Below the pieces are notes generated by a model. The model was not told the origin of the DNA and ran no database searches. It saw only the letters and a list, made by a program, of their open reading frames with translations. 64,000 bases of DNA from Strigamia acuminata (lineage: Eukaryota), in contig OX442314.1 of NCBI GenBank assembly GCA_949358305.1, forward strand, positions 22,196,001 through 22,260,000, in the 5' to 3' direction. Positions 43,071 to 64,000 of this stretch are shown here, piece by piece (within the stretch, counting starts at the first letter, position 1; every line of letters begins with the position of its first letter). The position numbers and the translations under genes were made by a program.

Positions 43071-45585
<2,515 letters not shown>

Positions 45586-45773
45586 AAAACAATTGTTGTA
45601 AGATAAGTTAGCTTATGAATTTGAATTGTACACGGCATCCGAGTATGTGAAATGAATTCAGTGCTAAATAAAGGAAATACAAATTGCTCATTAAATGACA
45701 TATTTTTCGTATTAAACTTAAATTTAATATAAAAATTTTTCTTCTTTCTTCTATTTACAAATTTTTATTTTAT

Positions 45774-47214
45774 TTATTTCTGGGTTGATGTAATATCATT
45801 ATCCAAATTGACAAGTCCGAAATCCCCCTCTCTGAAAGCCTTGATCATAAGACTGGCAGCCGCTTCCAAGTTAGGCCTCACGTACCAAGATCCTAAAACC
45901 ATAGATTTAATTTTTCTTAAATAAAAAGTTGAAAATGTTGAGATGAAATAAAATTCTTCAATCTTTACCATCTGTCACTGCTCTCACTTTCTTCTGTTGT
46001 CCGAATTTCAAAGAAATCTCAAGTAGAACCTTTGTAACATCGTCGCATGGCTCGAGAAGATTGAAGTGGTCGACGTAACTGAATTGGGAAAAAATAATGA
46101 TGACTGACTTAACAAAACATAAAATGTTGATTAAATATATTATTTTTACCTAAAGTTATTGTTTTTATTCAGCCAATATAACAAATAATCCGCAATTAAA
46201 TGTTCACCTACAACATGGTCTTGAAGAACAGCTGAAATCAACAATTAACTGTCACAAATTGTTTGTTTGTTGACATTGAATAATTTGTACCACAAAGGGC
46301 CAGCTTCAAACCAGTTTCGACATCTTTTATGTCGGGTGCAGTTACACCGGGAGTGTCCAATAAATAAATATTAGGATTTTCGTAAATCTAAAAAAAAAAT
46401 TTTTATGTTTAAAAATGCATTATTTTTAATATATACATTTTTAAAAACAATTACCTTAATTTTTTCTAATACACTTTTTGTCACTCCAGGACTCGCGCCG
46501 ACTTGCGTAGCTTTGGCTAAATTAAAATATAAAATATTAGATTGAAGAACGATAAATAAGCTACATTTTACCCTTTTTTAGATGCCGAGCTCGTAAGCAA
46601 TTAATCAATGAAGATTTGCCTACATTTGGAATGCCAATTGTCATTACAGTGAAATCTTCAGTCTAAAAAAGCAGAAATAAATTATAAAAATTACTAATTT
46701 TTAATTTAAAAAATAAATCAATAAAGAATCACCGTTTGTCGGTTAAATCTATTGCTAGACTGAATTAAATCCAAAGCTGTAGGTATGATTTTTCTTATCC
46801 CTTTATCCTGATGACTTTTACAATTTACAAACAAAACTTCATTCAATCTCGACTCTTCCTTCAATTGTTTTCGTATTTGTGCTTTAGCTGATGTACTTGC
46901 TAGATCTATTTTGGTTAACACCAATATATGAGGTCGTATTGCAGTTAAAAGGTTATAAAATAGGGGATTTCTTCCTGAAAATGGAATTTATGAATTGTTA
47001 AGAAAAAATACCAAATGCCAGTTAATAAAAAATTAGCACATTTCAAGGATATTCTCGCATCATGAACTTCAATAATACAATCGACCGATTTTAACTTGAG
47101 TTGCATTTGTTTTAACCCTGAAAACATATGCCGAGGAAACCATCGTGATAATTCTTTACATTTTGTTGTAAAACTTTGTCTGAAAACCGGCGCAGACGAC
47201 ACGGTACTCGCCAT
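45774..47214 (-). CDS. MTG1: Mitochondrial ribosome-associated GTPase 1 (RbgA/YlqF family)
   Basis: [100 protein letters not shown]. Confidence 0.94.
46988..47052 (-). other. U12-type intron with non-canonical AT-AA termini in MTG1
   Basis: Minus strand: gat gcg aga|ATATCCTTG...TTTTCTTAAC aattcataa|att cca ttt tca gga aga, restoring [12 protein letters not shown]. Confidence 0.82.
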
Positions 47215-47602
47215 TTTGTTTGGTCAAAAAATAAAAAGCGACATCGTTTATCAAAATGCAGAACTACAACTCCGATAAGCTTATATTGATTGGAAGAAAC
47301 ATGGACCATGGTATAGTTGGCACCACATTCGCCCAGCACTACATTCGCGCTCAGGCCAGACTTTGGCGGTAGATAAGCGGTAACACTAAAAGGCGGCGCA
47401 ATGGTAGATTTGGAAGGAATTGAATTGTTTAGGTCTATTATTTATTATTTAAAGGTGGTTTAAAATAAGAAACAAAATAAAATAAAATAAAATAAATAAA
47501 TAAAAAAAATATAAAAAAAATTTCCAAAAATAAAATTTTTTATTTATTTGGTTTTACAAATGCGGTGTTTTGTCGGGTTCGATCGTCGGGTTCGATCGTC
47601 GG

Positions 47603-47767
47603 TTAGGTAGTCGGTGCGACTGCCCGTGCGACCGCCCGGGCGACAACCCGTGCGACAACCCGTGCAACAACCCGTGTGACATTAAATCTACCCCTCCCCC
47701 TCCCTCTTCCCCTCCCCCGACTTCGACCCCGATTGTTCCTGCCACCGTTGTTGCCGCCGTTGTTGCC

Positions 47768-47850
<83 letters not shown>

Positions 47851-48268
47851 GGCCGTGGTCGTTCCAGCCACCGTTGCCATGGCCGCCGTTGCCGCGGCCG
47901 CCGTTGCCGTTCCAGCCGTTGCCGCGGCCGCCGTTGCCGCGGCCGCCGTTGCCGTTCCAGCCGTTGCCGCGGCCGCCGTTGCCGTTCCAGCCGTTGCCGC
48001 GGCCGCCGTTGCCGTTCCAGCCGTTGCCGCGGCCGCCGTTGCCGTACCAGCCGTTGCCGCGGCCGCCGTTGCCGTTCCAGCCGTTGCCGCGGCCGCCGTT
48101 GCCGTTCCAGCCGCCGTTGCCTTGGCCGCCGTTGCCGCTCCAGTTGCCGTCCCAGCCGCCGTTGCCTTGGCCGCCGTTGCCGCTCCAGTTGCCGTCCCAG
48201 CCGCCGTTCGAGTTGCCGTCCCAATCGCCGTTCGAGTTGCCGTCCCAGCCGCCGTTTTGTGACTGCAT
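47603..48268 (-). CDS. Low-complexity GW/GN-repeat protein with RG-repeat tail (221 aa), intronless; coding status unproven
   Basis: ATG-initiated ORF over a GC-rich tandem array of mostly 30-bp units (GNGGRGNGWN) and (GGCAAC)n; 11 GW dipeptides; ends RGRSRGRGRGRGRGRFNVTRVVARVVARVVARAVARAVAPTT*. Other frames are also open because of the repeat. Confidence 0.5.
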
Positions 48269-48724
48269 CCTGATCAGTTGTGATCAGAATGTGTTCAGAA
48301 TGTGAAATGAGTTGACTTCAGATTATCTCTGCTTTAATCCAGTAACAATGCAATAACGTATTTATTGGAATTTAATCTTTGGAATGTGACCTACTTCTTG
48401 TTCTGTGACCCACTTCCATATTTTGACCCTTTTAATCCATGTCCCCCATTTGATTGGAGTGTGGGTATTTATGACATCATTGGCTATTCTAAGGAATAAT
48501 GTCAATTGTATTGTTCTTTTTATTTTCCTTGTTTTAACAACGATAATAAAAGTTAGTGTAAATTTTGCATCCATCGACTGTGTGTGCGCATGAGTTTTTT
48601 CCGAGATTTTTACATTCTTCAAGCTGCGACGAGCTTGAATCGGGTTTAAACAATTGGACTAAAAGATTTACAAGAGGCGACGCTCTTGTGTCGTTTTTGA
48701 TCACATTTTTGAGAACTTGCAGTG

Positions 48725-51326
48725 TGTTGGGGTACCGTTGTTCTCATGTACGTACAAAACGTAAACAAAAAAACAAACCGCACAGATAAATAATAATAAT
48801 TTGCCAAAAATTTACCCTAAATTCATTTTACATATGTGAATTTTTGTCGAAATTGGCTGAAATTTACTCAAAATATGTGAAATTGTGTCGAAATTGGCCG
48901 AAATTAGCCAAAATTTACCCTGAAAATCTGAAATTTTGCCGAAATTTTGCATAAATTTTGGAGAAATAATGTCGAGATGCATGAAATCGGTTAAAAGGGC
49001 TTGTAAATCAAGGTTACATTGCACGTACTAATTGTATTCAGCAAACAAGTTTTGTTGAAAATTGTAAAAAGTTCAATTTTTATAAAATAACAAAGAAATT
49101 AAATTGATGATGGTTTATTTTTTTAAAAAAAAAATCACTTTTTTGTTTTCAATTCTAAATCATTTTTCCAAATAAGTTCTTTCAACTGACGTAAGCCTGA
49201 AATTGCAAGTCGAGGAATTGCAGAGCGAAATAAAAAATTCTAGTGAAATTTGTCAAATATGAGGTAAACTGGTTAAATGGTTAAATAATAAAAAAAGGAT
49301 TATTTTATTTAGATAAAATATTATAATAAAACAAGTACAGTGTGCTGATCGCACGTGTTACGTCTTTGGTCAAAGACGTGTATGTTACACATACATTATT
49401 TCTGGATGTATACTGTAAAAACTGGCGTTTGTAGAGAGAGTGGAGTTCGTACGAGATCAACAGAACAAAACGAGGTCAAGCAGTGAAGTCGACTTCCAGG
49501 AGGTGTTTCTGAATGAGATTCGATGACGCGCAACAGGAAGCGTATGCAAAGTGTCATAAATTATCGTAATATTCTTTTGTTATCTTGATTTTGTATCTGT
49601 GAACCCCAAATAAAATCACAAGTGATCCTGTTTTTGTGAGTGAAGCAAGATTTTTTTCCGTCAAAGTTAGAATCCAGCAGAATCGTAATTATACATACTT
49701 TTTTCGGGTGGGTCCAAATGTGCGCAAGAACGTATACAAACGTTACAGCTTTTTTTGTAGACGCTAATTAAAAAAAACGGCTGCCAAACTGCCGGCCTTT
49801 GATAACTGCGAGATCTTATATTCATGTGCGGTTTAGTGCGCGCGTTTGAGATCATGTTTTTGTGGTAATTAATTTGGCCATGCATATTTTTACATACGTA
49901 CGTAAGAATAGCCGTACGCTATTTTCACGTATTTACGTGAGAATAGCCGTCCCTGTTGGGGTACATTGTTCTCATGTACGTACAAAACGTAAATAAAAAA
50001 CAAACCCCACATATAAATAATAATAATTTGCCCAAAATTTACCCTAAATATCTGAAAATTGACCGAAATTTATTTTACATATATGAATTTTTGTCGAAAT
50101 TAGATGAAATTTACTCAAAATATGTGAAATTGTGTCGAAATTAGCCGAAATTAGCCAAAATTTACCCTGAAAATCTGAAATTTTGCCAAAATTTTGCATA
50201 AATTTTGGAGAAATAATGTCGATATTTACAAAAAATCTCAAATTATGGCAAAATTAATTGAAAATTTCTGAAATTATTGTAAGTATATCCACAAATTGTG
50301 GAATTTAGTTGATAATACAGGAAAAATCTTGACAGTTAAATTGACATTTTAATTTCCTTTAAGGAATTGGTTACATTGCAATCCTCGTACTCGCTGCGAG
50401 ATCAGTTCGATGTTCAATCTTGGGATTTCTTCCTACACCATGCAGAAAGATTAAAGACGGAATGGAAAGTGATTAAACACTTAAAATATGAAATTTAAAA
50501 AAATATATAAATGTTTTTAAAGGCTTTTATTAAAGGCTTTTATTTAACTTGACATGAACGTTTGTGTGTGTGTGTGGGGGGTTCAACTTCCGGTTTGTGC
50601 AATACCTCAAGAAAATGAATTAAGAAATGAATGAATTAATTAATTAATTGACTTTTCTGGTGCAGTTTTTGGTTTAGTTTTCAACAAGATGATAGAATAA
50701 ACAGTTAATATAGTTAAAAGGAAGAAAATGGCAAATTACTGAAAAATTTTGACAAACCGGAGCGCTACCTGGCGGATTCCGTTTGCTACAATGTATGCCA
50801 AAATACGTTTTTTAATGTTTGCTATGTCGAAACCAAGCTCATTTTGAAGAGCGGACAATTCCGCACAAGCCTGTATTTATTCTATTGCGATTCGGTCGTA
50901 AAAGAGTATCGATTCGGCGATCTTAGCGGGCGATCGAATAGGAAATTTATGCAAAATTTGGATTCGACCAATAAAAAATCAAATATTTTGAAAAAAGGAC
51001 CAATTAGAATGTTTAAACAAAGTTTCCTGTGTAGATTTTGCCGCTGAAAACGATGGCGCTAATAACTTTTCGACCAGATTAACGGTTGACTTTTTATCAG
51101 CAAAAAATGATCTTATTTGTGTAATTTCATCCAAAGTGTACAACATAAAAGCCTTTTTCCAAAAACGTAGTTGTTTTACTTGTTCATTTCCAGGTGTTAA
51201 TGGTGTCTGACCTAGTTCTAAAACACACGGTACTGGGCGTTTTGTTATGTTCTGGTTCATAATTTCATTAAAATTCAGCTTATTTTATTTATCTGTGTGG
51301 TTTATTTTGTTTACGTTTTGTTTCGT
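48725..51326. repeat. Dispersed repeat family: direct copies 48725-48975 and 49954-50222, inverted partial copy 51281-51326
   Basis: tgttggggtac..ttgttctcatgtacgtacaaaacgtaaa..gaaattagccaaaatttaccctgaaaatctgaaattttgcc..ggagaaataatgtcga occurs twice. 51281-51326 is the approximate reverse complement of acgtacaaaacgtaaacaaaaaacaaaccgcacagataaata. Confidence 0.85.
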
Positions 51327-51667
51327 GAAGAATTGTGTGAATTTAATTTAATTTAATTATATTTTACTTTATTTTATTTTAATTTAATTTTATTTATTTA
51401 CAATGCGCCCAATCGCAATGCGCCCATTTGGTCCCTGCCCAGCTTTTTCATCAAAATTACTATGAATTGGGCTTGTGAATTTTCAAATATACATATATCT
51501 GTGCTCCAATTTCGCAGTTTATCACTGATCACTGATCACGACTAATACGGGCAAGTTCTACGACTACAACGAATTGGCAAGTTATTTGGTAAGTATTCTG
51601 TAAATTATTTAGTTATTTAGCAAGTTTAGCAAGTTTAGCAAGTTTAGCAAGCTTAGTTATAAAAAAA

Positions 51668-54600
51668 ATGGTTTTTAAATGTAAACAGACAAGAGATATC
51701 TCTGATCATGATTTATTATGTGCAATACAATCAGAAATTAAAACCAAGGCTGAAAACCCAATCTTTAACCAATGGACTAATGAAAATTGTTTTTGGGCCG
51801 ATATTCTTTTTAGACTTGATTATCCAAATAAATACCTGTTTCGAGAGCAGCTTTATGATAGGTGGTTTAGGAAAATTAAAAAACTCTTTGATGAGAGTGA
51901 GATTGAAATTGATTGTGCTTTACCTGTCATAATTCCACATTTAAGCAGTGTTGCTGAAATTGATAGAATGGATACTGTTTTGGCTTTAACAAACCCACGA
52001 AGCAAACTGAGAATACAACCACAAAAAAGTAGTAAAGTACTAGCCAACAAACTAGCCAATCAATCTAAGCTAAGAAAACATCCACCAAAAAATAGTAAAG
52101 TAATAGCCAATTACTCAGAGTTAAAGACATTCTGTTTTTGCAAAAAAGTTAATGATGATGGACATTATGTTGAATGCACAGATTGTAAAGATTGGTACCA
52201 CTTTAGTTGTTTAGGAGTGTCTGATAATGATTTGGATAGTATTAATGCTATAAGGACAAATGAGAAGTGGAAATGTTCTAAATGCAAATGGAAAAATGAT
52301 AAACCAAGAGGATTTGTTAATGGTTTTAGTAACTGTTGGCTAAGTAGTTTAATGCAGGCATTGCATTCAACAAATGCTATTGAATGCATCTTAAAAGTTG
52401 ATTCAACTAGTCCAAACAAGTGCTTGTTGCCTTTTCAATCACTGTTGAAAGAAATGGATAATAAAGTAGTGAAAACGGCAATTCCATGCAGTCTATTCCA
52501 AAATCTTTTGGTTAAAACTGATTTTCATATCTGGCAGTTTACAGATAAATCAGATCCAAGTAAGCAACAAGATCCAATAGAATTTTATAACGTTGTTTTG
52601 GCTAGATTTCTGGAATTATTGAACATAAATCCATTTACACACAGCACTGAAACTTATACATGTGAACCGTGTAAAATTAATAACGAAATGAATAGTCCTT
52701 TAGCTGTAATATATGTTGGAAAAAATTTAGATAACACCTTACGGTCAATCAATAAAGATTTCTTTTCAACATATACACAACCTGTTCAAAGTGAGTGTTT
52801 TCGTTGTTTAGAAAATACTTACTGGACAAAGAATGTTATAAAAGAAGTTCCAGAAACATTACTCTTCTCTTTTCCTAATAAAGTTACACATGTCTGCAAT
52901 GAGTTAGAAATCCAGTGTGAGAATGGTGATATATGGCAATACAGATTGCATTCTAATATTTTATATCGCAATATAGATGACAATGACAATAAAGGCCATT
53001 ATTTAACATGCAGATGGTTAGACTTTGAGTCAGTAGTTTTGTGTGATGATACAAAAGTAGAATTTGTCAGTGTGCCATGTGCTAATCAGCTTATTAAACA
53101 GGAAGGTGTTGCAGCAGTGTACAATCTGCAAAGTAAAAAACAAGCAACAGAAGAACGCACCAATTGTAGCAGCCTAGTTAAAGAAAATAAGATAACTATG
53201 GAAGAAACAGATAGCGACACAGAGTCTTACAATAGTCCTGAAGTGTACAATCTGCAAAGTAAAAAACAAGCAACAGAAGAATGCACCAATTGTAGCAGCC
53301 TAGTTAAAGAAAATAAGATAACTATGGAAGAAACAGATAGCGACACAGAGTCTTACAATAGTCCTGAAGTGTACAATCTGCAAAGTAAAAAACAAGCAAC
53401 AGAAGAATGCACCAATTGTAGCAGCCTAGTTAAAGAAAATAAGATAACTATGGAAGAAACAGATAGCGACACAGAGTCTTACAATAGTCCTGAAGGCACT
53501 GATTCAAATAGTGAAACAATGACCACCAATGCAGATGGTGGTGTTAACATCTGTACTTCTGAGCTGCAAAATGAGTTTTCAATAAAACAACATAAATGGG
53601 AAAAATTGACTGTAAAACAGAAGCGTAATACACTTACAAGTGATTGGACAAATGTTTTTGATAAATGGTTGCGTAAGCTAAATCCATACTGTACCCTCTG
53701 TTTTAAAAAGCACTATGTTCCTACCAAAAACAGTAGAAAAATAAAATCAAACACTATATTCCGGACAAACGGAAAATGTATTAATGAGGATTGCACATGT
53801 AAGTTTACTGTTGTAATGTCTCAAGATCTGTCCTGCGAGGTAAAATGGTTTGGTAAAATTACACATAAGCCCGGATCATATTCTGCCAGAAAGATATCAT
53901 CAAGTGTTCGCAGATCTTTGAAAAAGGAGTTACGATATAGTAAAAATCCAAAAGCTCTTTATTTTGAAAAGCTGAAAAATATTCCAGAGGAGAGTTTTAA
54001 CGCTGGAAATTTAACTGGGGTGGGCCTGAATGCTAAAATCTACAAGCAAATTGCGCATGAGGCAAGAAAAGAACATAGAAAAGATGACAACATTTTTGTA
54101 AGTTTAGATAAAATAAAAACATGTATAGATAGTAAAAACCTAGTAAAACCCAAACTAGATGGAATTTTTTTACAAGCCATCAGCATGCATCCTGCATATT
54201 ATATGGCATGGACTGATTATGGGATTGAACTTTTTCACAAATATGCAGTTACTGATGCAGTTTTTATTGATGCGACAGGAAGTGTTGCTCACAACATAGG
54301 TGGAAATAAGAATAAAAAATTTTATTATTACTCCATTATTATACGTAATCCAAAGGCTGTTAATACAATGCCATGTTCTGTAGCAGAGCTAGTTACAAGT
54401 CAGCATAATGGACCCATGATTACTAATTTTTTGTATAAATTCAGATATGATGAAAAACGTTTATATGGTCACAATGGTAATTGCAGCCCTAGAATGTTTT
54501 GTTGTGATCAAAGTTTAGTTCTGATAAATTCTGTACTTTTTGTTTTCAATCTTGAAACGCTCAACGAGTACTTGCAGAGGTGTTGGAAAATATTGAATGG

Positions 54601-57079
54601 TGATGCATCAACTGAAGAGTTGAAAAAGACAATAATTCATTGTGGTACTTGTCATATAATGAAAAATGTTAGCAAGCACTTAAACACATGGAATAAAGAA
54701 GTTAAAAAACCTTTTATGTACATGTTTAGTGCACTTCTGAATTCTACAACTCTTGATGAGTATAGGCGTCTACTGGAATGTATCATTACAATTCTTTTAT
54801 GTCCATCACAATGTGACTTTTTAACCAAATGCCTTTCGCACATGGTAGAGGTAGTCAACTGTTTAGGAATCAAACCTCTTCCAACAAATTTTGAAACAGC
54901 AGAAATTGCAGATGCCACGCACATAAATTCTAACATAGCTTGTGATGATGGTGATGATGATGATGAAACAGAAGAAGAGGCCTTACTTGCAAACAGAGAA
55001 TCACCTTTCAAACGGTTGGCAGATGATGTGACATCTAAAGTTAGAACAATTTTAAATAACAATATAAAAAACAATAACAATACAAAAAATTTGTACTATG
55101 ATGAGGACATATATAAGAAATTTAAGAAATGTTATTTTGCAATCGCACCTTTGTGGACAAATCTAATGATGGGAGATATTAGCAGGCATGGTAAAACTGA
55201 GCCATATGAGTCCTACTGTCCCATCAAGGATTCCCTTAGGAAAAGTAGACCAATAAATTTTCTAGATAAACCCCCAAATACCCAAGGGATCATTGAGGTT
55301 CACCAAAAAATATTTAAATATATTCATCTGCACAATCGTGTATTCCGATTAGATGAGTTAGCAGACGAACATTACAAAGCAGTTATAGCTATGCAAAGAG
55401 AATTTAAAAAAGAACTAGCCATAAAAAATAAGAAGAAAAACAATAAGAGAGTGATTACTAAAAAACAATCCAAAATGAGTAATGAAAATGAACAGTGCAT
55501 GTTAAAAGTTAAAAAGGCAACCCAACTTGTTGTAGAAACATGGGATAGATCGCCTGCACAGACTGCAAACGAAATGCAGTCTAGAAGTAATAAAAGAAAA
55601 GGTGCGTACCAACAACCACCACGAGGAAAGAAAAATATTTTCGATCTTACCCTGAGTGTTCCCAGAAAAAAAATAACACCTACCAATCCCAATAATGCCA
55701 ACAAAGTTGTGCCAATGGAAGGTTTATTGCCTAGAAGTAATAAAAGAAAAGGTGTGGACCAACAACCACCACAAGTTAAGAAAAATATAACACCTACAAT
55801 TCCCAATAATGCCAACAAAGTTGAGCCAATGGAAGATTTATTGGATCTTAATGATCCTGAATGGGTGGATATAAAAAATTCAAATGGAAAAAAACCATAC
55901 ATATTTCTGTGGGAGAACAGAAGGAGAGATGAAGCCGAGTGTATATTGAAAATAAACAATGTTTCAATTACACTTCTACAATTACAAACATTGTTGCCAA
56001 AACGGCATTTAGAAGGAGATGTACTAGACTGTTATCTCGAAGTATTGAAAGTAGACTCAAAGAATGCTATGTACGCTTTCAATAGTTATGTCTATACAAA
56101 ATCCAAAAATGCAAATGCAAATTGGAAAAATTGTCTACCAAATTTGTCGGTTACACAAAATGTAAGATTTTTTGTGCTACCTGTTTGTGAGAGAAATCAT
56201 TGGAGTGTAATTGTGGTTGATATTCAAGATGAAGAAAACTATTTGTTAAACTCATTAGGCCAAACCACTGAAACTGAGAAAAAAGCATTGGAGTTTTTAC
56301 AAAAAATCCCCAATCTTTGTTCAAGGAGCCAAACATTGAAAAACTTCTATAATATAGAAATGCAAAATTTGGTGAGAACACCATGTATCATTCAGAATAA
56401 CGATTGGGACTGTGGAATATTTGTTTGTCGCTATGTTCAACAATTAATAAAGCATGACAATTTGGAATTGGAAATAAAAGAAAGTAACACAGCACGGGCA
56501 GATATTCTGCAAGAGTTAATAACTTTCTCTTCAACAGCTGCAACTGAAGAAAGTAATAATAACAATCAAGCAATTTCCTTCAGAAAAGAAATTGTTTCAT
56601 TGCATGCTGAATTAAATGACTTAATGAAATTTGATCCAAAAGAAGAAAAAATTCTAAATCTAGAATTACATCTTCAAAACCATTCATATTTTTTAAGAAA
56701 TAGAAAACTAAAAAGGAAATTAAAGTTTCCTAATTTGGAACAGTCGGAAGAAAGTAAATTGCATTCACTAAGCGAGGAAGAAAAAGACAAAATATCCGAA
56801 GAATTGCACGAGATATACCTAACTCCCGATAAATGGCTAATTTCGCCAGTTGATGCAGAAAGTTTAAATGCATACCTAGATAAAGATAACGATTTTGATG
56901 GTGTTAATAAGAGAGGAAAATCATTAAGATATTTAGGTGAAGTTTTATTGCCTGAAGTATTAATATACATTACACACCAACGTTCCGGTCTTTGCATTAA
57001 AAAATGTCGGGTCTTACTATCTTTAGAAGTCATTGGACAACAAATCAATGTAGACAATTTAGCAACACAGAAAGTTTAA
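51668..57079 (+). mobile_element. 1803-aa intronless Mutator/NOF-like DDE transposase polyprotein: PHD finger - USP (C19) deubiquitinase - transposase - Ulp1/SENP (C48) protease
   Basis: PHD FCFCKK..YVECTDCKDWYHFSCLG..WKCSKC (52130-52285). USP Cys box GFVNGFSNCWLSSLMQAL, QQDPIEF, His box GHYLTC..LCDDTKV. Transposase VFIDATGS, PCSVAELVTSQH, CDQSLVLINSV, HCGTCHIMK, APLWTNLM, NTQGIIEVH. C48 TLLPKRHLEGDVLDCYL, VLPVCERNHWSVIVVD, IQNNDWDCGIFVCRY. Confidence 0.85.
53117..53494 (+). repeat. Three near-identical in-frame 126-bp (42-aa) tandem repeats inside the transposase ORF
   Basis: VYNLQSKKQATEE(R/C)TNCSSLVKENKITMEETDSDTESYNSPE starting at 53117, 53243 and 53369. Confidence 0.95.
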
Positions 57080-57097
57080 ATGCGACCAATTAACAGT

Positions 57098-57253
57098 AGC
57101 TGCATTCAATAACTTTAAAACGCCTCTAAAACTCATTTTGTGTCTGCACATGTGACGTCATTCCCATCCATGTTATTCAATGGGATTGATGTCACACGTC
57201 ACACGTCACACGAAACGAGTTTTAGAGGCGTTTTTGAGTTTTTGAATGCAGCT
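57098..57253. mobile_element. 156-bp fold-back MITE with 3-bp target duplication (PIF/Harbinger-Tourist-like)
   Basis: agctgcattcaataactttaaaacgcctctaaaactc.. pairs with ..gagttttagaggcgtttttgagtttttgaatgcagct; inner tgtgacgtcattcccat pairs with atgggattgatgtcaca; AGT directly flanks both ends. Confidence 0.72.
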
Positions 57254-58560
57254 AGTGAGATTTTTAGTGAACTTAAAGCAAATTTTGTTTTATAATCCAA
57301 ATATTATGTATTAAACAGACAGTTATTTCTTTTTTCCATATTTTATTGGTATATTTCTAAAAAAATAAAATTTTGAAAGTAAAATTGGAAATGTAAACAA
57401 ATTTGAGAAAAAAATAATTTAATATTTACACCAAATTTTTGATGCAAAAATACATTTTTTTGGCAAAAAACACGATTTTTTAGGCAAAAAAAGCAAATTT
57501 TTACTTTTTATTTTGTTAATCAATATAGTTTTTTTTCATACTTTTAACACAAGTTTGATTTGTTCTATACCAAACAAGAAAAACAAAACTCCTGTGATGG
57601 TTTGGGACCTTGACGTGGTACAGGAGCTTAGTTATAGTGAATTAATAAAATCATGGCTCCATTCTTAACTTTTAGTTAGGATTGTTGATTTTACTAACGC
57701 TATATGATACTAACACCAAACCGAGATTGCAGATTTTAAATCACTGCCAAAAACCACTATCGGCATGAAAGCCTTTTTTCAAAAACATAGTTTTTTTGTT
57801 TTACTTGCCTCATCTGAAGGCAATTTGAAAATAAAAAATAAAAAACGAGGATAACAAAATAAACAACCTTTTTATTCCACGGGTTAATGATAACGAAAGC
57901 AAAATACACACAAATCATTGGTTGTAGCAGAAGCCACGCATGCGCATATCCGAAAACGGCACGCGCCAAGCCTCTGTCGGCAAAATTATAAGTTGATAAC
58001 AATTCGTTGCTATGCAACGGAGGAAAGATGAAATCACAGCAAGTTTGGCATTAAACAGAAAATACACTAAATTACAGTTGAAATAGGTCAAAATGACCAC
58101 AAAGACACAGTGAATAAAAAACGCAATTGTTAATAGGTTCGAAAATAATTCTAAATACATGAAAAATGACAAGAACGGAGTTCGCACTCCAAAGATCGGG
58201 CGCAGCCAATCAGAGCGCAGCATCGAAGCGGTTGAGATCAAGTTTGAATTCAAACCTGACCAAACCAAACAAAATGTATTTTATAAACACACATAATCAT
58301 AAAAATCAAATAGTATTTCTAGCAGTTCAAAACAATAAAATGAAAAGAGAAAATTAAACTAAAAGCATTAAAAAATTAGCATTGGATCTGAAATGTAAAC
58401 AAAAGATTAAAGTCAATAATAAATATGAAATTAAAGAATAAATACATCTTAAATCACGAAAAAAAGAAGGATATTCCACTGAGAGTTGCCAGGAAGCCGA
58501 ATGGCCAAAGCAACCCACCGAGATACGCAGAGAAGCCCTTCACACAATTCTGAAAGCTGG

Positions 58561-59745
58561 AAAAAAATTCCAAACTTTTTCATTTTTGGTTTTTAAAAGT
58601 GCAGATGACAGACAAGGTCTGTTTGCACATTCTGGCCAATTTCCATGAATATTCTATGTAGGGGTCGTGATAAAACCCCGTTTTTCTGTTTTTTGGACCA
58701 AAAACAGGTGAAAAAAATTCCAAACTTTTTCATTTTTGGATTCATGGGGGTTTTTAAAAGTGCAGATGACAGACAAGGTCTGTGTGCACATTCTGGCCAA
58801 TTTCCATGAATATTCTATGTAGGGGTCGTGATAAAACCCCGTTTTTCTGTTTTTTGGACCAAAAACAGGTGAAAAAAATTCCAAACTTTTTCATTTTTGG
58901 ATTCATGGGGGTTTTTAAAAGTGCAGATGACAGACAAGGTCTGTGTGCACATTCTGGCCAATTTCCATGAATATTCTATGTAGGGGTCGTGATAAAACCC
59001 CGTTTTTCTGTTTTTTGGACCAAAAACAGGTGAAAAAAATTCCAAACTTTTTCATTTTTGGATTCATGGGGGTTTTTAAAAGTGCAGATGACAGACAAGG
59101 TCTGTGTGCACATTCTGGCCAATTTCCATGAATATTCTATGTAGGGGTCGTGATAAAACCCCGTTTTTCTGTTTTTTGGACCAAAAACAGGTGAAAAAAA
59201 TTCCAAACTTTTTCATTTTTGGATTCATGGGGGTTTTTAAAAGTGCAGATGACAGACAAGGTCTGTTTGCACATTCTGGCCAATTTCCATGAATATTCTA
59301 TGTAGGGGTCGTGATAAAACCCCGTTTTTCTGTTTTTTGGACCAAAAACAGGTGAAAAAAATTCCAAACTTTTTCATTTTTGGATTCATGGGGGTTTTTA
59401 AAAGTGCAGATGACAGACAAGGTCTGTGTGCACATTCTGGCCAATTTCCATGAATATTCTATGTAGGGGTCGTGATAAAACCCCGTTTTTCTGTTTTTTG
59501 GACCAAAAACAGGTGAAAAAAATTCCAAACTTTTTCATTTTTGGATTCATGGGGGTTTTTAAAAGTGCAGATGACAGACAAGGTCTGTGTGCACATTCTG
59601 GCCAATTTCCATGAATATTCTATGTAGGGGTCGTGATAAAACCCCGTTTTTCTGTTTTTTGGACCAAAAACAGGTGAAAAAAATTCCAAACTTTTTCATT
59701 TTTGGATTCATGGGGGTTTTTAAAAGTGCAGATGACAGACAAGGT
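58561..59745. repeat. 161-bp tandem array (about 7.4 nearly identical copies), interrupted by the Copia LTR
   Basis: Unit aaaaaaattccaaactttttcatttttggattcatggggg..gacagacaaggtctgtgtgcacattctggccaatttccatgaatattctatgtaggggtcgtgataaaaccccg..caggtg; the ORF track repeats at exact 161-nt offsets. Confidence 0.97.
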
Positions 59746-59968
59746 TGTTGAGTGTTATTGAGTTAATGCGTATACTCAGTATTGTCATGTTTAATTTTGA
59801 TGCCGACAGAGGTCGCATATTGTAAGTGTACGTCAAGATGACGTTTTTTCTGGATTCGACCTTACTAGGCCGTATTCAATGTCAGATGTAATTGACACGT
59901 TGCACCGAATAAATGCACATTGTTAAGTTTTCCTTTAAATCGTCTGGATTATTTAACACCAACCAACA
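59746..59968 (+). mobile_element. 5' LTR (223 bp) of Ty1/Copia element
   Basis: Starts TGTTG exactly where the satellite breaks, ends CAACA, contains AATAAA, and is followed by a primer binding site. Confidence 0.85.
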
Positions 59969-59969
59969 G

Positions 59970-59980
59970 TGGTAGCAGAG
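59970..59980 (+). promoter_or_regulatory. Primer binding site for initiator tRNA-Met
   Basis: TGGTAGCAGAG is complementary to the 3' end (CUCUGCUACCA) of metazoan initiator tRNA-Met. Confidence 0.85.
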
Positions 59981-60511
59981 AGGGTGGTTACGGATTATCG
60001 GCGATATCTGAGAAGAAACAACAATTGGAATTAGCGAGAGAGTTCCCGACGGTGAAAAACCACGCCGCAAGTGGTTCCGAGTGTGCCAAGGAAATAAAAG
60101 GCACCGTAAAAGCTAAGTTATCAATTGCTTGTCTTTAAATAACAGAATCGTTGATAAGGTTCTGTTTTCAGAATTCAATTATTCGTAAATAATCACCCGG
60201 AAACGTCCGACGAGCGTTTAGACAACACGTCGTCGAGACAAAGCGTGCATTTGGTTGAAACGTCGTAGCAACGTCGCAGCCACACGGGGTTTAACGAGCG
60301 GAATCGATTAGGAATCGTAAACGTCGCTGAAACGTTCGGAAACGTGTGACGACAGCCGCCATTACCGTGTAACGAGGAGAATCAACGTTGGAAACGAAAT
60401 TCCGTTGTGCCCAGGTTCTAAAGCGGCACAATAACAGCTAAGTATAATACTTTTTAGCTGTGAAACGTGAAATTTGATTCGCTCTATTATTGTTAGGTTT
60501 TTTGAGTAACA

Positions 60512-63500
60512 ATGGCCGCGCAAGACAGTGGTTTAGGCAACATTGGCAGCATTGAAAAGCTGAATAATAAGAACTTCTTTCTCTGGCGAATGAGAGTTCG
60601 AGGAATTCTCAAAGTAAAGGAAGTTTGGCAAGCTGCTATAATTGGGGATGCACCACCTGTTCCAGTAGTAGGGGCAGACGATTTTGCAGCAGCGACAGTT
60701 CTTTGGGATGCATGGGTCAAGAAAAACGACCAAGCACTGACAATTATCGCTCTCACTCTCTCATCTGAGCAGGCTATGCGGTATAGCAACGAGGAAAACG
60801 CCAAAACACTGTGGGCCAAAATAGAAGCTCACATGGCGGGCCGCGCGCAGCGTCAACAAATTACGTGTACGTTTGAACTTTCCCGGATCAAGATGACTAA
60901 GACGGAGGATATTGACACGTACATTGACAGGGCTGAAGCACTGTCAACCAAGGTCGCTGAATTAGGAAAGGTTTTGACGCCAGAAGAAGTCGGATTCTAT
61001 GTTTTAAATGGCACGAGGCCAGAATACGAACAGACAGTAAGAGCATTAAATGCGATTGCCGATTTAACTTTGGAAGAAATCCGGGCGCAATTAAAAATCG
61101 AAGAGGAAAGGATTCGAAGGAAATCGGGAGACGATTACCAGGGCAATGCTACTGAGAAGGCTTTTAAAGCCAAAAACAAAAAGGGCTCATTTACATGCTT
61201 CAATTGTGGCAAACCCGGGCATTTTGCTAGAGATTGCTGGCGACCGAAAAAGGACAAGCAAGAAAAAGAACGACAGGAACCAAGTCAAAAAGTGACTGGA
61301 CGTAGCCGTGCGAAAGGGAAGAATCAGGCGTCATTAGCGATGAAGCGAGAGAGCGAAGATGAATTCGAATTCACCTTTCTTGCCGAAGAAGAAGCGAAAG
61401 AAGATAAGGAATGTACTTTTTCGTGGGATTGGCTCCTGGATTCCGGCGCATCTAGTCACATGACGTCTCAAAAGGGAGTCATAAACGAATTGGAACAAGA
61501 CACCCAGAGTATAGGTTTAGCCGGCAAAGGCATCAAGTTGGAGTCGGAGGGTAAAGGAAATGTGGTAATTGAAACACAAACCGGAAAATTGAAATTGACG
61601 GAAGTGTTATACGTGCCCGAACTTAAAACACAGTTGCTCTCCGTGCCGAAAATTGTGGATAACGGCTACAGGGTTCTCTTTACGCGCGAATTAGCCTATA
61701 TTATTGATGAGCAAAATAAAAAGAAAATTAAAATTCAACGCAAGGGCAATAGCTATATCCTGCAAGGAACCAATGGGCAGGCCAAACAAGAAGTCAATTT
61801 AGTCACGCAAGAGATGTGGCACCGCCGTTTAGCCCATGTCAACTATCAGACTTTGAATGAAATGCGACGCGACAACATGGTGCGTGGTTTGGATATGCCG
61901 AAGAAAATTCCAGTAGAAGTTTGTCAATCATGCATTGCAGGCAAGATGGCGGCCCAACCTTTTGAATCGGTACTGAGTCAACAATCGTCGAGAGTATTTG
62001 AGTTGTTGCACATCGACCTAATGGGGCCGATAAATCCATCAACGTATTCGGACGGGAGCTACACATTGACGATGGTTGACGATTTCAGCCGCAAGATTTT
62101 CGTCCGAATCCTACAAACGAAGGCAGAAACTTCTCGCATATTACAGGAATTTATTCTTCAACAAGAGCGCCAAAAGGAACATAAATTGAAACGTGTTAGA
62201 AGCGACAACGGCGGAGAATTTATAGCCAATACGCTGAATGTTTTCTTCAAGAAGAAGGGAATTAAACATGAATTAACCACGCCCCACGCGCCCCAGAGCA
62301 ACGCCATAGCAGAAAGAGCCAACAGAACCATTATGGAGGCAACAAGGACATTGATTTTAGATTCGAAGCTGCCAAAACGTTTTTGGGGCGAGGCGCTGCA
62401 TGTCGCAGTATTAGGAAGAAATTACTGCAAGTCGTCCTTCCACGGCAAATCTCCGGAACAAGTATGGACAGGAAGGACCCCGACAGTTAAGTATTTAAGA
62501 AGATTTGGCTGTCAGGCACATGTTCTCAAAGCAAAAATTCACCAAACCAAGTTGGATTCAAAAACCACATTAGGGATTTTTGTGGGATATTCTCTCAAAC
62601 GCAAGGCGTACCGAATATATATGCCTGAAGTGTACAAAATATTAGAAGCCAGAAATGTAAAATTTAATGAGGAAATCTTGGGATATAAATTATTATCACA
62701 AGCTCAACTCGATGAAGATAAAGAAGACGAGGTAGACATTGATATTTCGCCCTCAAAACCTCAAGAGGACGATGTTCCACAGCCAGAAAGTGACCCCTCA
62801 TCCGTATATTCGTCGGCGGAATCCGAGAGCGAAACGAGTTCGGAAGAAGAGCTCCCGCCCCCGCGGAAAGTGGGACGACCGAAAGGAACAACCAAGGACA
62901 ACATCGCAGAACGCAAAAGGAAGTTATCCGAAGCCGAGAAGAACCAAGCAGCGGGTTTCGGTTTCAGACGTTCGAAGCGTACGCAGGAATCTCAACAAAA
63001 GAAGCCGAAAGCACACACAGCTTATCTGGCTTACCAAGCGCCCAAATCTTATAAAGAAGCCATGACATCTGCGCAAAGAACAAAGTGGCAGCGCGCGATG
63101 GATGAAGAAATGGCATCAATGAAAGAACACGAGGTTTGGGAAACTGTAGACTTACCAGAAGACGAGTGTACTGTCAAATCGAAATGGGTCTTTACAATTA
63201 AGACAAACAAGCAGAGAAACATTGAACGGTACAAAGCGCGATTAGTCGCTACAGGTTATTCACAGCGACCCGGCATTGACTTTGATGAAACATATTCACC
63301 GGTAATTCGGATAGAAACACTAAGAATGCTCATAAATATCGCAGCCAAATTGGGATTAACATTAGAGCAACACGACGTAAAAACTGCTTACTTGCACGGA
63401 CGGTTGGATAAAGTCATCTTTATGCTAGAGCCAGAAGGATACAAGAGTAAGAAAAAACGCAAAGTATGCAGGCTCTTGAAAAGCATCTACGGGCTCAAGC

Positions 63501-64000
63501 AGAGCGGTAGATGTTGGTTTGAGAAGATGGACGAAGAACTCAAGAAATTGGGTTTCCAACAATCGACGTGTGATCCGTGCTTGTATCTTGTCAGGCGAGG
63601 AAACGATTTCCTATTTTTGGGTATATATGTCGACGATACGGTGACATTGAGCAGCACACCAAAATTCAAGAAAGAATATTTATTGAGATTGACATTAGAA
63701 ATCGAATTGCTGGATTTAGGCGAGCTAGCGTTCATCTTAGGTTTAGAAATCGACCAAATGGAGGGAAAGATCCGTTTAAACCAAAACGGATATATCATAA
63801 AGATTCTAGAAAAGTATGGCATGGACGTTTGCAACCCATCCAAGACACCGATGGATGTTAGCCAGGATCTAAATGAGTACAGTGAAAGTCCGAAGGTTGA
63901 CCCAACCAGATATCAAGAAATGATTGGTTCACTCCTATACCTGGCGACTGGGTCACGCCCAGATTTGAGTTTCCCAGTCAGTTGTCTTGCGCAATACAGC
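60512..64000 (+). mobile_element. Ty1/Copia gag-pol polyprotein, apparently intact, truncated by the window end
   Basis: IEKLNNKNFFLWRMRVRGIL (gag), CFNCGKPGHFARDC (Zn knuckle), WLLDSGASSHM (protease), WHRRLAH..CQSC, ELLHIDLMGP, RSDNGGEF, AERANRTIME (integrase), then KARLVATGYSQRPGIDFDETYSPV, LLKSIYGLKQSGRCW, IYVDD (RT). PR-IN-RT order defines Copia. Confidence 0.95.

Follow-up and report, generated by a model that had tools for sequence, protein, structure and literature searches.

The window, a stretch of 64,000 nucleotides of Strigamia acuminata DNA, harbours an open reading frame that encodes 1803 amino acids without interruption (Table 1). An earlier note, made from the letters of this DNA, had claimed this frame together with the order PHD finger, USP, repeats, DDE transposase and Ulp1-type (C48) protease, and both the reading frame and the domain calls bore it out. 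Its expectations for the single segments stood in part: Pfam recognized the PHD, UCH and Peptidase_C48 domains, whereas the centre had no Pfam match and its RNase H fold was found by modelling. The first 150 residues gave no credible Pfam match (best phmmer match among the compared proteins, E 0.003); for the C-terminal 174 residues there was no family match in Pfam, and the best Atlas score was 0.76. Sub-threshold Pfam matches of the 1803-aa protein to Toxin_2, XPG_I and HNH_4 were regarded as noise.

Table 1. Features of the multidomain transposase gene and its 3' flank, in positions of the window
Feature	Position	Strand	Basis or remark
Multidomain transposase ORF, 1803 aa	51668..57079	+	CpG-depleted vs host exons
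N-terminal region, aa 1-150	51668..52117	+	weak similarity to N-termini of few relatives
PHD finger (C4HC3), aa 156-206	52133..52285	+	Pfam, E 6.6e-7 in whole protein
USP / peptidase C19 domain, aa ~213-486; N218, C223 (52334), H444 (52997), D460 (53045)	52304..53125	+	Pfam UCH and fold
Three tandem 126-bp (42-aa) acidic repeats	53116..53495	+	99% identical
Predicted WRKY-like zinc-finger DNA-binding domain, aa ~663-738	53654..53881	+	C675, C704, C709, H733 conserved
Predicted RNase H-fold DDE catalytic domain with helical insertion; D868 (54269), D947 (54506), H996, W1163, E1210 (55295)	54230..55417	+	alignment and model
Basic linker with degenerate two-copy repeat, ~70% identical	55581..55843	+	sequence repeat
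Peptidase C48 (Ulp1/SENP-fold) domain, aa ~1425-1618; H1511 (56198), N1528 (56249), Q1576, C1582 (56411)	55940..56521	+	Pfam and alignment
C-terminal domain, aa 1630-1803	56555..57076	+	Pfam and Atlas compared
~170-bp high-copy inverted-repeat element (MITE-like), directly after stop codon	57087..57256	.	inverted repeat I1
161-bp tandem array, 7.2 copies, 99% identical, copia-interrupted, 1.5 kb after stop	58588..59745	.	repeat search

The transposase core

The central region was modelled with a pLDDT of 89.9, and the best structural match to the core was the ISCth4 transposase (PDB 6XG8), which occupied Foldseek ranks 1-4 (E 2.7e-4) and is a member of the IS256 family. The comparison of the two (VIA) gave Z 12.5 and rmsd 5.1 over 273 aligned residues at 12% identity; Hermes followed with Z 9.4. 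ISCth4 shares the RNase H core with a helical insertion domain, but it is bacterial, about 400 aa long and devoid of accessory domains. In a 64-row alignment the DDE residues and H996 were invariant among the rows with a residue at the given position (D868 in 62/62, D947 in 64/64, H996 in 61/61 and E1210 in 39/39). The DDE transposase claimed for the centre was upheld.

Pfam MULE domain PF10551 had no match in the 1803-aa protein and a single weak, sub-cut-off match among the 60 relatives scanned. In Mutator/MULE transposases the second Asp is followed by a (C/D)xxH motif and the Glu is preceded by a conserved Trp; H996 and W1163 are present here, while position 993 is Gly in this protein and in its sea-cucumber relatives and Cys in 56 of 62 rows. 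The Atlas matches at 0.90-0.93 were mostly MULE clusters, with 141-164 shared features, that is fewer than the 170 typical of the same family. According to the in silico analysis the central region is predicted to be a Mutator-type DDE transposase, closest to IS256/Mutator. HMMER searches with the core found 1132 representatives at E<=0.001, so the lack of matches in word-index searches with the core alignment reflects the sensitivity of the index. Upstream of the core, the predicted WRKY-like finger matched WRKY with a middling Z of 5.5 (rmsd 2.9, 60 aligned residues).

The PHD finger and the two proteases

The PHD finger of the earlier note was confirmed by its Pfam match (Table 1). The H3K4me3-reading aromatic cage of BPTF consists of Y10, Y17, Y23 and W32; F155, N162, Y167 and W176 align with it, thus three of the four positions are aromatic and one BPTF tyrosine is Asn here. 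Among the 25 solved PHD matches there were the H3K4me3 readers BPTF, PHF2/8, DIDO, TAF3, Spp1 and CFP1, the first four being the closest, and W176 is kept in 15 of the 16 PHD fingers of the family.

The USP domain matched Pfam UCH only when the segment was scanned alone, with 34 bits (cut-off 23.9) against 61-130 for most full relatives. A phmmer search of this segment versus PDB sequences returned chance matches only, and its identity was settled by the fold search, where the model matched USP46-Ub (Foldseek E 2e-14, TM 0.70) with the palm-thumb-fingers fold, the Cys box (Asn, Cys) and the His box (His, Asp/Asn) all present. The best matches were USP46, USP12, USP30, Ubp8 and USP1, and since they are only 13-20% identical, this likeness does not indicate a substrate. 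C223, H444 and D460 are the catalytic residues that had been proposed from the SNCW, GHY and CDD motifs. At about 20% overall identity, N218, C223 and H444 occur in 17 of 17 domains and the third residue is D or N in all of them. The tree distances of USP and core are correlated in these 17 proteins (Spearman 0.66, permutation p 0.0005), which fits long co-inheritance of the two. The USP tree itself is of low resolution, and this USP does not fall together with those of the sea cucumbers; the tree therefore makes no case for a single shared rearrangement.

On the whole protein the Pfam Peptidase_C48 match spans residues 1446-1597 (E 5.6e-11). The triad and the oxyanion Gln are present, with Asn1528 as the third residue where Ulp1 and SENP1 have Asp; it lies in LLNS and aligns with the Asp of YVDS in Ulp1. 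In 14 of 14 domains the H/W/Q/C/G residues are invariant at about 20% overall identity, and column 1528 holds Asp in 12 of them and Asn in the other 2, the Asn being found also in the relative P0014. The His and Cys had been placed correctly by the earlier note, but the Asp of VVD, which it took as catalytic, stands in a column with Asp in only 7 of the 14 domains. The W-L-N-D motif of the Ulp1 substrate tunnel is H-L-E-G here, and its Trp is kept in 7 of the 14. Because of this degenerate motif and the Asn in the third position, SUMO specificity is only a best guess: of the claimed SUMO-type protease it is the C48 fold that was retained.

The USP, C48 and PHD alignments were built from sequences already chosen by Pfam matches, which favours conserved motifs; so read, the invariance of the active sites even in distant relatives speaks for functional proteases. 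In three pairs of relatives the protease domains were 56, 53 and 47% identical versus 46, 23 and 32% for the linkers. Neutral evolution among the copies had been named as a finding that would speak against the earlier interpretation. In the 3' third, the best-supported coding differences that separate this copy from the others number 30, and 6 of them were synonymous (neutral expectation 23.5%, p 0.83), hence the differences among copies look neutral, while the active sites are invariant across distant relatives; the 30 were drawn from 40 of 431 differences, and amplified dead copies may dominate them.

Copies, flanks and relatives

Two runs of the same species contained 384 and 470 contig pieces on 2.3 kb of the element (the summed depth is not a copy number), whose identity ranged between 99+% and values under 90%; frameshifts and internal deletions occurred among them. 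Such hundreds of pieces, diverged and in part deleted, point to a transposon family rather than to a single host gene. Mutator/MULE elements have terminal inverted repeats, except for the non-TIR MULEs, and target-site duplications of 8-11 bp; no such duplication was found here. No pair of terminal inverted repeats rose above the shuffled background when 44800-51667 was compared with 57080-60600 (best score 13, null maxima 12-15), thus the element ends and its current mobility are unproven. On the right, the element may extend past the copia element. Nine related metagenome loci are fragments of 1-4 kb, too short to show ends. The MITE-like element is missing in many other copies, where the joint skips 170 bases, and its summed depth is 20- to 40-fold higher. 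The 161-bp array is possibly the 3' minisatellite of the element.

At the codon junctions of the ORF, 25 CpG were observed against 55 expected (z -5.5), and TpG and CpA are increased, which suggests past methylation; neither the copia ORF nor four host exon stretches show such a depletion. Since the core of even the nearest relatives is just 30-35% identical, horizontal transfer as the source of the CpG deficit is unsupported.

Sea cucumbers, rotifers and environmental contigs contain relatives with this domain kit. USP and C48 occur together in 11 of 150 relatives and are joined by PHD in 4, mostly in another order; the order described here is common to the sea-cucumber elements. The core stands alone in 108 of 153 relatives, mostly short fragments. 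Many relatives are without one or both proteases, consequently neither protease is shown to be essential. As judged from the sequences, the PHD/USP/C48 combination is a recurring family kit with several orders and is not unique to this locus. None of the named relatives bears the label Rehavkus or NOF.

Discussion

An association of a DDE enzyme with an H3K4me3-reading PHD finger is known from the Transib-derived RAG1-RAG2, which is an analogy to this model; there, however, the PHD finger sits on a separate subunit and deconjugating proteases are missing. Each accessory domain of the present protein is already known singly on transposons. Rehavkus, a MULE-related group given for arthropods and annelids, has according to PMC6446971 a single ORF, a PHD finger, a minisatellite before the 3' TIR and a 9-bp TSD. 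It is similar in the single ORF, the Mutator-type DDE and the PHD, and the array downstream of our ORF may match its minisatellite, but its TIR and 9-bp TSD were not found here, and the comparison is by description; peptidase, ubiquitin and Ulp have no match in the main text of that source. Ulp1-bearing Mutator elements comprise Kaonashi/KIU-VANC of Arabidopsis and MuDR elements of melon, rice, hydra and lancelet (PMC2836005, PMC13317346). They share the Mutator element with a peptidase C48, and the VANC/KIU genes of plant MULEs have an anti-silencing link in VANDAL (PMC13317346); in the plant non-TIR MULEs, however, KIU has a gene of its own, whereas the transposase described here itself carries PHD, USP and C48 in one fusion, and no USP is described for such elements in the parts of these two papers covered. 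In Ginger1 a DDE enzyme is fused to Ulp1, sometimes with a PHD, or to an OTU deubiquitinase, never to both proteases, according to PMC2836005; its core is gypsy-integrase-like, and OTU is not USP. UCH or Peptidase_C48 on Helitron-like elements (PMC11417382) and a Trichomonas transposase_11-C19 fusion (cited in PMC2836005) likewise place USP/C19 or C48 on DNA transposons, but with rolling-circle or IS5-like enzymes instead of Mutator, and in the parts of these papers covered both proteases in one ORF do not occur. Concerning the novelty suspected in the earlier note, the combination is thus not confined to this locus, while no Mutator element with both USP and C48 was found in the literature covered, Repbase/Dfam and most subscription papers lying outside its scope.

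The explanation that we favour, with about even confidence, is a multi-copy Mutator-type cut-and-paste transposon whose transposase likely brings its own tools for reading chromatin and for removing ubiquitin and SUMO-like modifiers to its site of action. The WRKY-like finger would bind the element ends, D868, D947 and E1210 would cut and paste, and the PHD finger might dock the complex on H3K4-methylated nucleosomes, that is at active promoters. The transposase itself, together with chromatin or silencing proteins in its vicinity, could be stripped of ubiquitin by the USP, and C48 could remove a ubiquitin-like modifier from the same targets, SUMO being the best guess with NEDD8 or ubiquitin possible. 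Such removal of marks would slow the turnover of the transposase and leave the chromatin open at donor and target sites. The domain order varies among the relatives, hence the domains seem to work in cis in a modular fashion.

The same active proteases might instead steer host DNA repair or the disassembly of the transpososome at excision and insertion breaks, and not silencing or turnover. Such a role was proposed for Ulp1 and OTU where these domains are part of Ginger and Mutator transposases (PMC2836005), while the function of these domains, noted on transposons since 2006-2010, is called unknown in PMC2836005 and PMC13317346. The fusion to the catalytic domain would put the proteases at the break, and the USPs listed above as best matches to the model, which at their identity carry no indication of substrate, were also counted in its favour. 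The PHD finger would point to chromatin state more than to repair, and we consider this role rather unlikely as the principal one, although it is compatible with the favoured explanation. It is improbable that the accessory domains are captured host cargo which, in this lineage at any rate, has lost its importance. Gene capture is known from MULEs, the coding differences in the 3' third look neutral, the tunnel and third residue of C48 are altered and the UCH score is weak; nevertheless, the active sites are invariant in 17 USP and 14 C48 domains of low overall identity, the domains are complete and keep their frame through 5.4 kb, and the Asn of C48 recurs in P0014.

Cleavage of the 1803-aa product into separate proteins in the style of viral polyproteins, the alternative raised by the earlier note, has a very low probability. 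A Gly-Gly does occur in the linker that directly precedes the transposase (aa 624-625), but it is unconserved in linkers: among 12 multi-domain proteins 2 have no Gly-Gly at all and in the rest they are scattered; moreover, USP and Ulp1 enzymes normally require a folded ubiquitin-like domain. Equally remote, in our opinion, is the reading that a transposon gave rise to the gene, which was domesticated and serves the host as an immobile chromatin regulator: the long ORF is intact, adjoins host genes and has no TIR found in the window, but against this stand the hundreds of diverged, internally deleted pieces in the two runs, the absence of introns, which the neighbouring host genes possess, a codon and CpG composition that differs from that of host exons, and the retention of all DDE residues.

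It should be emphasized that in this family a single, apparently intact transposase bears a histone reader and two different deconjugating enzymes, the active sites of which are intact. SUMO is needed for piRNA silencing (bioRxiv 10.1101/533091). Only tentatively, we propose a widespread, undescribed animal lineage of Mutator type, in which a reader of H3K4me3, a deubiquitinase and a protease for SUMO/Ubl were fused to the transposase as a counter-silencing kit, kept for long and reshuffled into several orders, and may erase the ubiquitin and SUMO marks of the host piRNA/heterochromatin and proteasome systems. If true, this kit would be the enzymatic animal counterpart of the plant VANC anti-silencing. 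Natural variants with one, both or neither protease make the question of mark erasure, be it in silencing, degradation or repair control, directly testable, and the PHD finger offers a concrete basis for the insertion bias of MULEs near genes. A Holothuria relative is annotated in the databases as the host enzyme 'Ubiquitin carboxyl-terminal hydrolase 36', and through relatives annotated as host enzymes deubiquitinase counts are inflated.

Central region and accessory domains

The single continuous frame claimed in the earlier note was verified as one unbroken ORF of 1803 aa at 51668-57079 (+), and modelled fold and conserved residues support the assignment of its central region (core) as a Mutator-type transposase. 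No credible Pfam match was obtained for this region. HMMER with the core against 1.84 billion representatives gave 1132 matches at E<=0.001 (426 at 1e-10), and the best 150 were analysed as relatives. In the 64-row core alignment D868 (62/62), D947 (64/64), H996 (61/61) and E1210 (39/39) were invariant in the rows having the residue, W1163 was kept in 38 of 40 rows, and C704, C709 and H733 indicate a zinc finger, which in the model matches a WRKY domain at Z 5.5. The core model was confident (pLDDT 89.9, pTM 0.87); the ISCth4 transposase occupied Foldseek ranks 1-4 and scored Z 12.5 in a wide structure search (rmsd 5.1, 273 aligned), with Hermes (Z 9.4), foamy-virus integrase (8.6) and the P element (8.4) lower. 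ISCth4 is an IS256-family transposase, and that family is a relative of Mutator. This modelled fold and the invariant D868/D947/E1210 agree with the DDE transposase claimed for the centre. Atlas neighbours of the core, used as a lead only, were mostly MULE clusters at 0.90-0.93.

The PHD (aa 156-206) and Peptidase_C48 (aa 1446-1597) were assigned by Pfam on the whole protein, and UCH passed the cut-off only in a separate scan of aa 209-490 (34 vs 23.9 bits). The model of this USP segment (pLDDT 73, built from a 13-row alignment) is matched by solved USP domains, USP46-Ub being the top one (E 2e-14, TM 0.70). The three accessory domains previously claimed were recovered, as were the repeats between USP and transposase (three 126-bp units, 99% identical), and the per-segment check by Pfam and structure prediction yielded PHD, UCH, Peptidase_C48 and an RNase H-type transposase-like fold. 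Among 25 solved matches of the PHD the foremost were BPTF, PHF2, Pps, PHF8, DIDO and TAF3, whose fingers are H3K4me3 readers; aromatic residues stand at 3 of 4 BPTF cage positions.

Catalytic residues had been claimed for both proteases, and they proved invariant in alignment sets chosen by Pfam matches, a choice which favours conserved active sites: N218, C223 and H444 of the USP in 17/17 domains (third residue Asp or Asn in 17/17), and His, Trp, Gln, Cys and Gly of C48 in 14/14 (third residue Asp in 12, Asn in 2). The C48 His and Cys had been located correctly; the 'VVD' Asp had not, since alignment to yeast Ulp1 gives Asn1528 that position. The SUMO-type protease stands as a C48 domain but not in its specificity: the Ulp1 W-L-N-D motif reads H-L-E-G, and its Trp survives in 7 of the 14 aligned domains, which leaves room for a substrate other than SUMO.

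Relatives and known systems

By Pfam, UCH and C48 occurred together in 9 of 60 long relatives scanned; three of these nine have a PHD at E<=0.01, one over the cut-off. Our own profiles, built partly from the same relatives they score, found USP in 27, C48 in 17 and PHD in 16 of the best 150 of 1132 matches. Of these 150, 11 have the two proteases together and 4 have the PHD as well; of the 19 relatives of at least 1300 aa, 11 have both proteases; absences mean little because most matches are short fragments. The usual order was (PHD)-core-USP-C48, besides PHD-core-C48-USP, core-PHD-USP and core-PHD-C48. PHD-USP-core was seen in Holothuria (protein P0002) and Apostichopus (P0082/P0154), and core-C48 in Apostichopus (P0004/P0155). 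Since P0002 stops exactly at the start of the C48 of the 70% identical P0155, sea cucumbers would have a full PHD-USP-core-C48 form, pieced together from separate records, and would share the domain order of the Strigamia acuminata ORF. The core clusters with these proteins (FastTree 0.964 with 98 sequences, ultrafast bootstrap 97 with 17) at just 30-35% identity; bdelloid rotifers are the other named relatives. Judged from these sequences, the PHD, USP, transposase and C48 kit is a family trait.

Further cargo includes a Macro domain (P0048, E 8e-9), a BAG domain (P0086, E 4e-9) and a weak SprT-like match (P0036). In the relative at locus L009:1-3120, two tandem C48 domains come after the core, and a subsequent frame encodes a PHD. 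P0069, a PHD-core relative, is on a 7.6-kb contig assigned to a MAG of the bacterium Sedimenticola sp. and is likely eukaryotic contamination.

Ginger1 carries Ulp1, PHD or OTU, with OTU and Ulp1 as mutually exclusive options in the consulted part of PMC2836005; our ORF unites USP and C48. The same part reports Ulp1 on Mutators, as the earlier note had it, and a Trichomonas transposase that has a C19 peptidase. From the sections consulted, Helitron cargo includes UCH and C48 (PMC11417382), Rehavkus is one ORF with PHD and a minisatellite at its 3' side (PMC6446971), and rice has MULE-ULP fusions (PMC12903978). Term searches of PMC6431247, PMC13359780, PMC3417536 and bioRxiv 2021.09.26.461848 added nothing on PHD/USP/C48 combined with a transposase. 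No Mutator element with USP and C48 together was found in the literature searched; one could be catalogued in Repbase or Dfam, or described in a subscription paper or a supplementary file.

Copies in the species and CpG depletion

Of the words of 49500-58500, 66-83% occur in each of three public runs that share a species label; one of the three may be the source sample. For 55095-57425 there were 384 and 470 contig pieces in two runs; in the first, 65 were 99+% identical, 97 were 95-99%, 135 were 90-95% and 87 were <90%, and copies show joints skipping 179-1112 bases within the ORF plus 2- and 11-base deletions. From this spread and these deletions, the ORF belongs to a transposon family with defective derivatives in Strigamia acuminata. 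Summed depth over contig pieces, which is not copy number, reached 10,871 and 96,518 on the 170-bp inverted-repeat element after the stop, compared with values between a few hundred and 3,000 across the ORF, and many transposon copies skip this element, which is a separate high-copy insertion. Coverage continues beyond it to 57425, hence the transposon's 3' end lies further right. A search for TIR pairs within the window gave none over shuffled background.

CpG o/e was 0.41 in the ORF against 1.18 in the window. At constant amino-acid sequence and codon usage, codon-junction CpG numbered 25 vs 55 expected (z -5.5), TpG and CpA being over-represented (z +5); no junction deficit was seen in the copia ORF or in four stretches of host exon, and the C48-to-end part taken alone had no significant one (z -1.0). 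Deficit and excess together suggest past methylation of the transposon lineage, in Strigamia acuminata or an earlier host.

Proposed mechanism

The element behaves as a Mutator-type element carrying protease cargo. Which domains the protein contains, its fold, its conserved active sites and its presence in many copies were demonstrated, and from these we infer targets and activities as follows, with about an even chance of being right: the protein would be an autonomous cut-and-paste transposase anchored to active chromatin by its PHD, and the two proteases would take ubiquitin and a ubiquitin-like modifier off the transposase itself and off nearby chromatin or silencing factors. That piRNA silencing requires SUMO, as stated in the earlier note, is shown in bioRxiv 10.1101/533091; Ulp1-bearing VANC genes are tied to anti-silencing, the function of the Ulp1 domain being called unknown in the part consulted of PMC13317346.

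That the proteases steer repair instead is unlikely, and that the accessory domains are idle cargo is still less probable. Protease conservation exceeds that of the adjacent linker but is below that of the core in three pairs of relatives, and distances in the USP tree are correlated with those in the core tree (0.66, p 0.0005), with close pairs contributing and the USP tree weakly resolved. Coding differences between this copy and others lent no support to constraint, 6 of 30 listed being synonymous, as under neutrality (40 of 431 differences listed); amplified dead derivatives are suggested to contribute, because high-depth copies are frameshifted. Cleavage of a polyprotein by the proteases is very improbable, and domestication of the gene, to be set beside its many copies, equally so.

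Setting of the ORF

The surroundings are an AT-rich eukaryotic region with introns and FICD-, TSSC4- and NAD-synthase-like exons; the copia retrotransposon extends beyond the window end.

Features around the ORF
Feature	Position	Strand	Remarks
OXCT1-like gene (presumed)	ends at about 45586
GTPase gene with introns	45777-47340	-	MMR_HSR1 match; presumably MTG1-like, by its motifs; 5' end towards transposon region
GC-rich microsatellite-like region	47603-48268	-	reads as 221-aa Gly/Asn/Trp low-complexity ORF, GGWNGNGG repeats
~260-bp repeat, two copies	48725-48978 and 49954-50225		88% identical; internal periodicity 20-21 bp; probably another small mobile element
Short inverted piece, grouped with the ~260-bp repeat	51280-51321		close to ORF start
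Direct repeat, 51-57 bp	51144-51194 and 57764-57820		77% identical, E 5e-6; one copy on each side of the ORF, some 500 bp upstream and some 700 bp downstream; may be a subterminal motif
Inverted-repeat element, about 170 bp	57087-57256		just past stop codon
161-bp tandem array	58588-59745		3' of ORF
copia LTR retrotransposon	59746-64000		begins where 161-bp array ends; open gag-pol frame 60512 to window end
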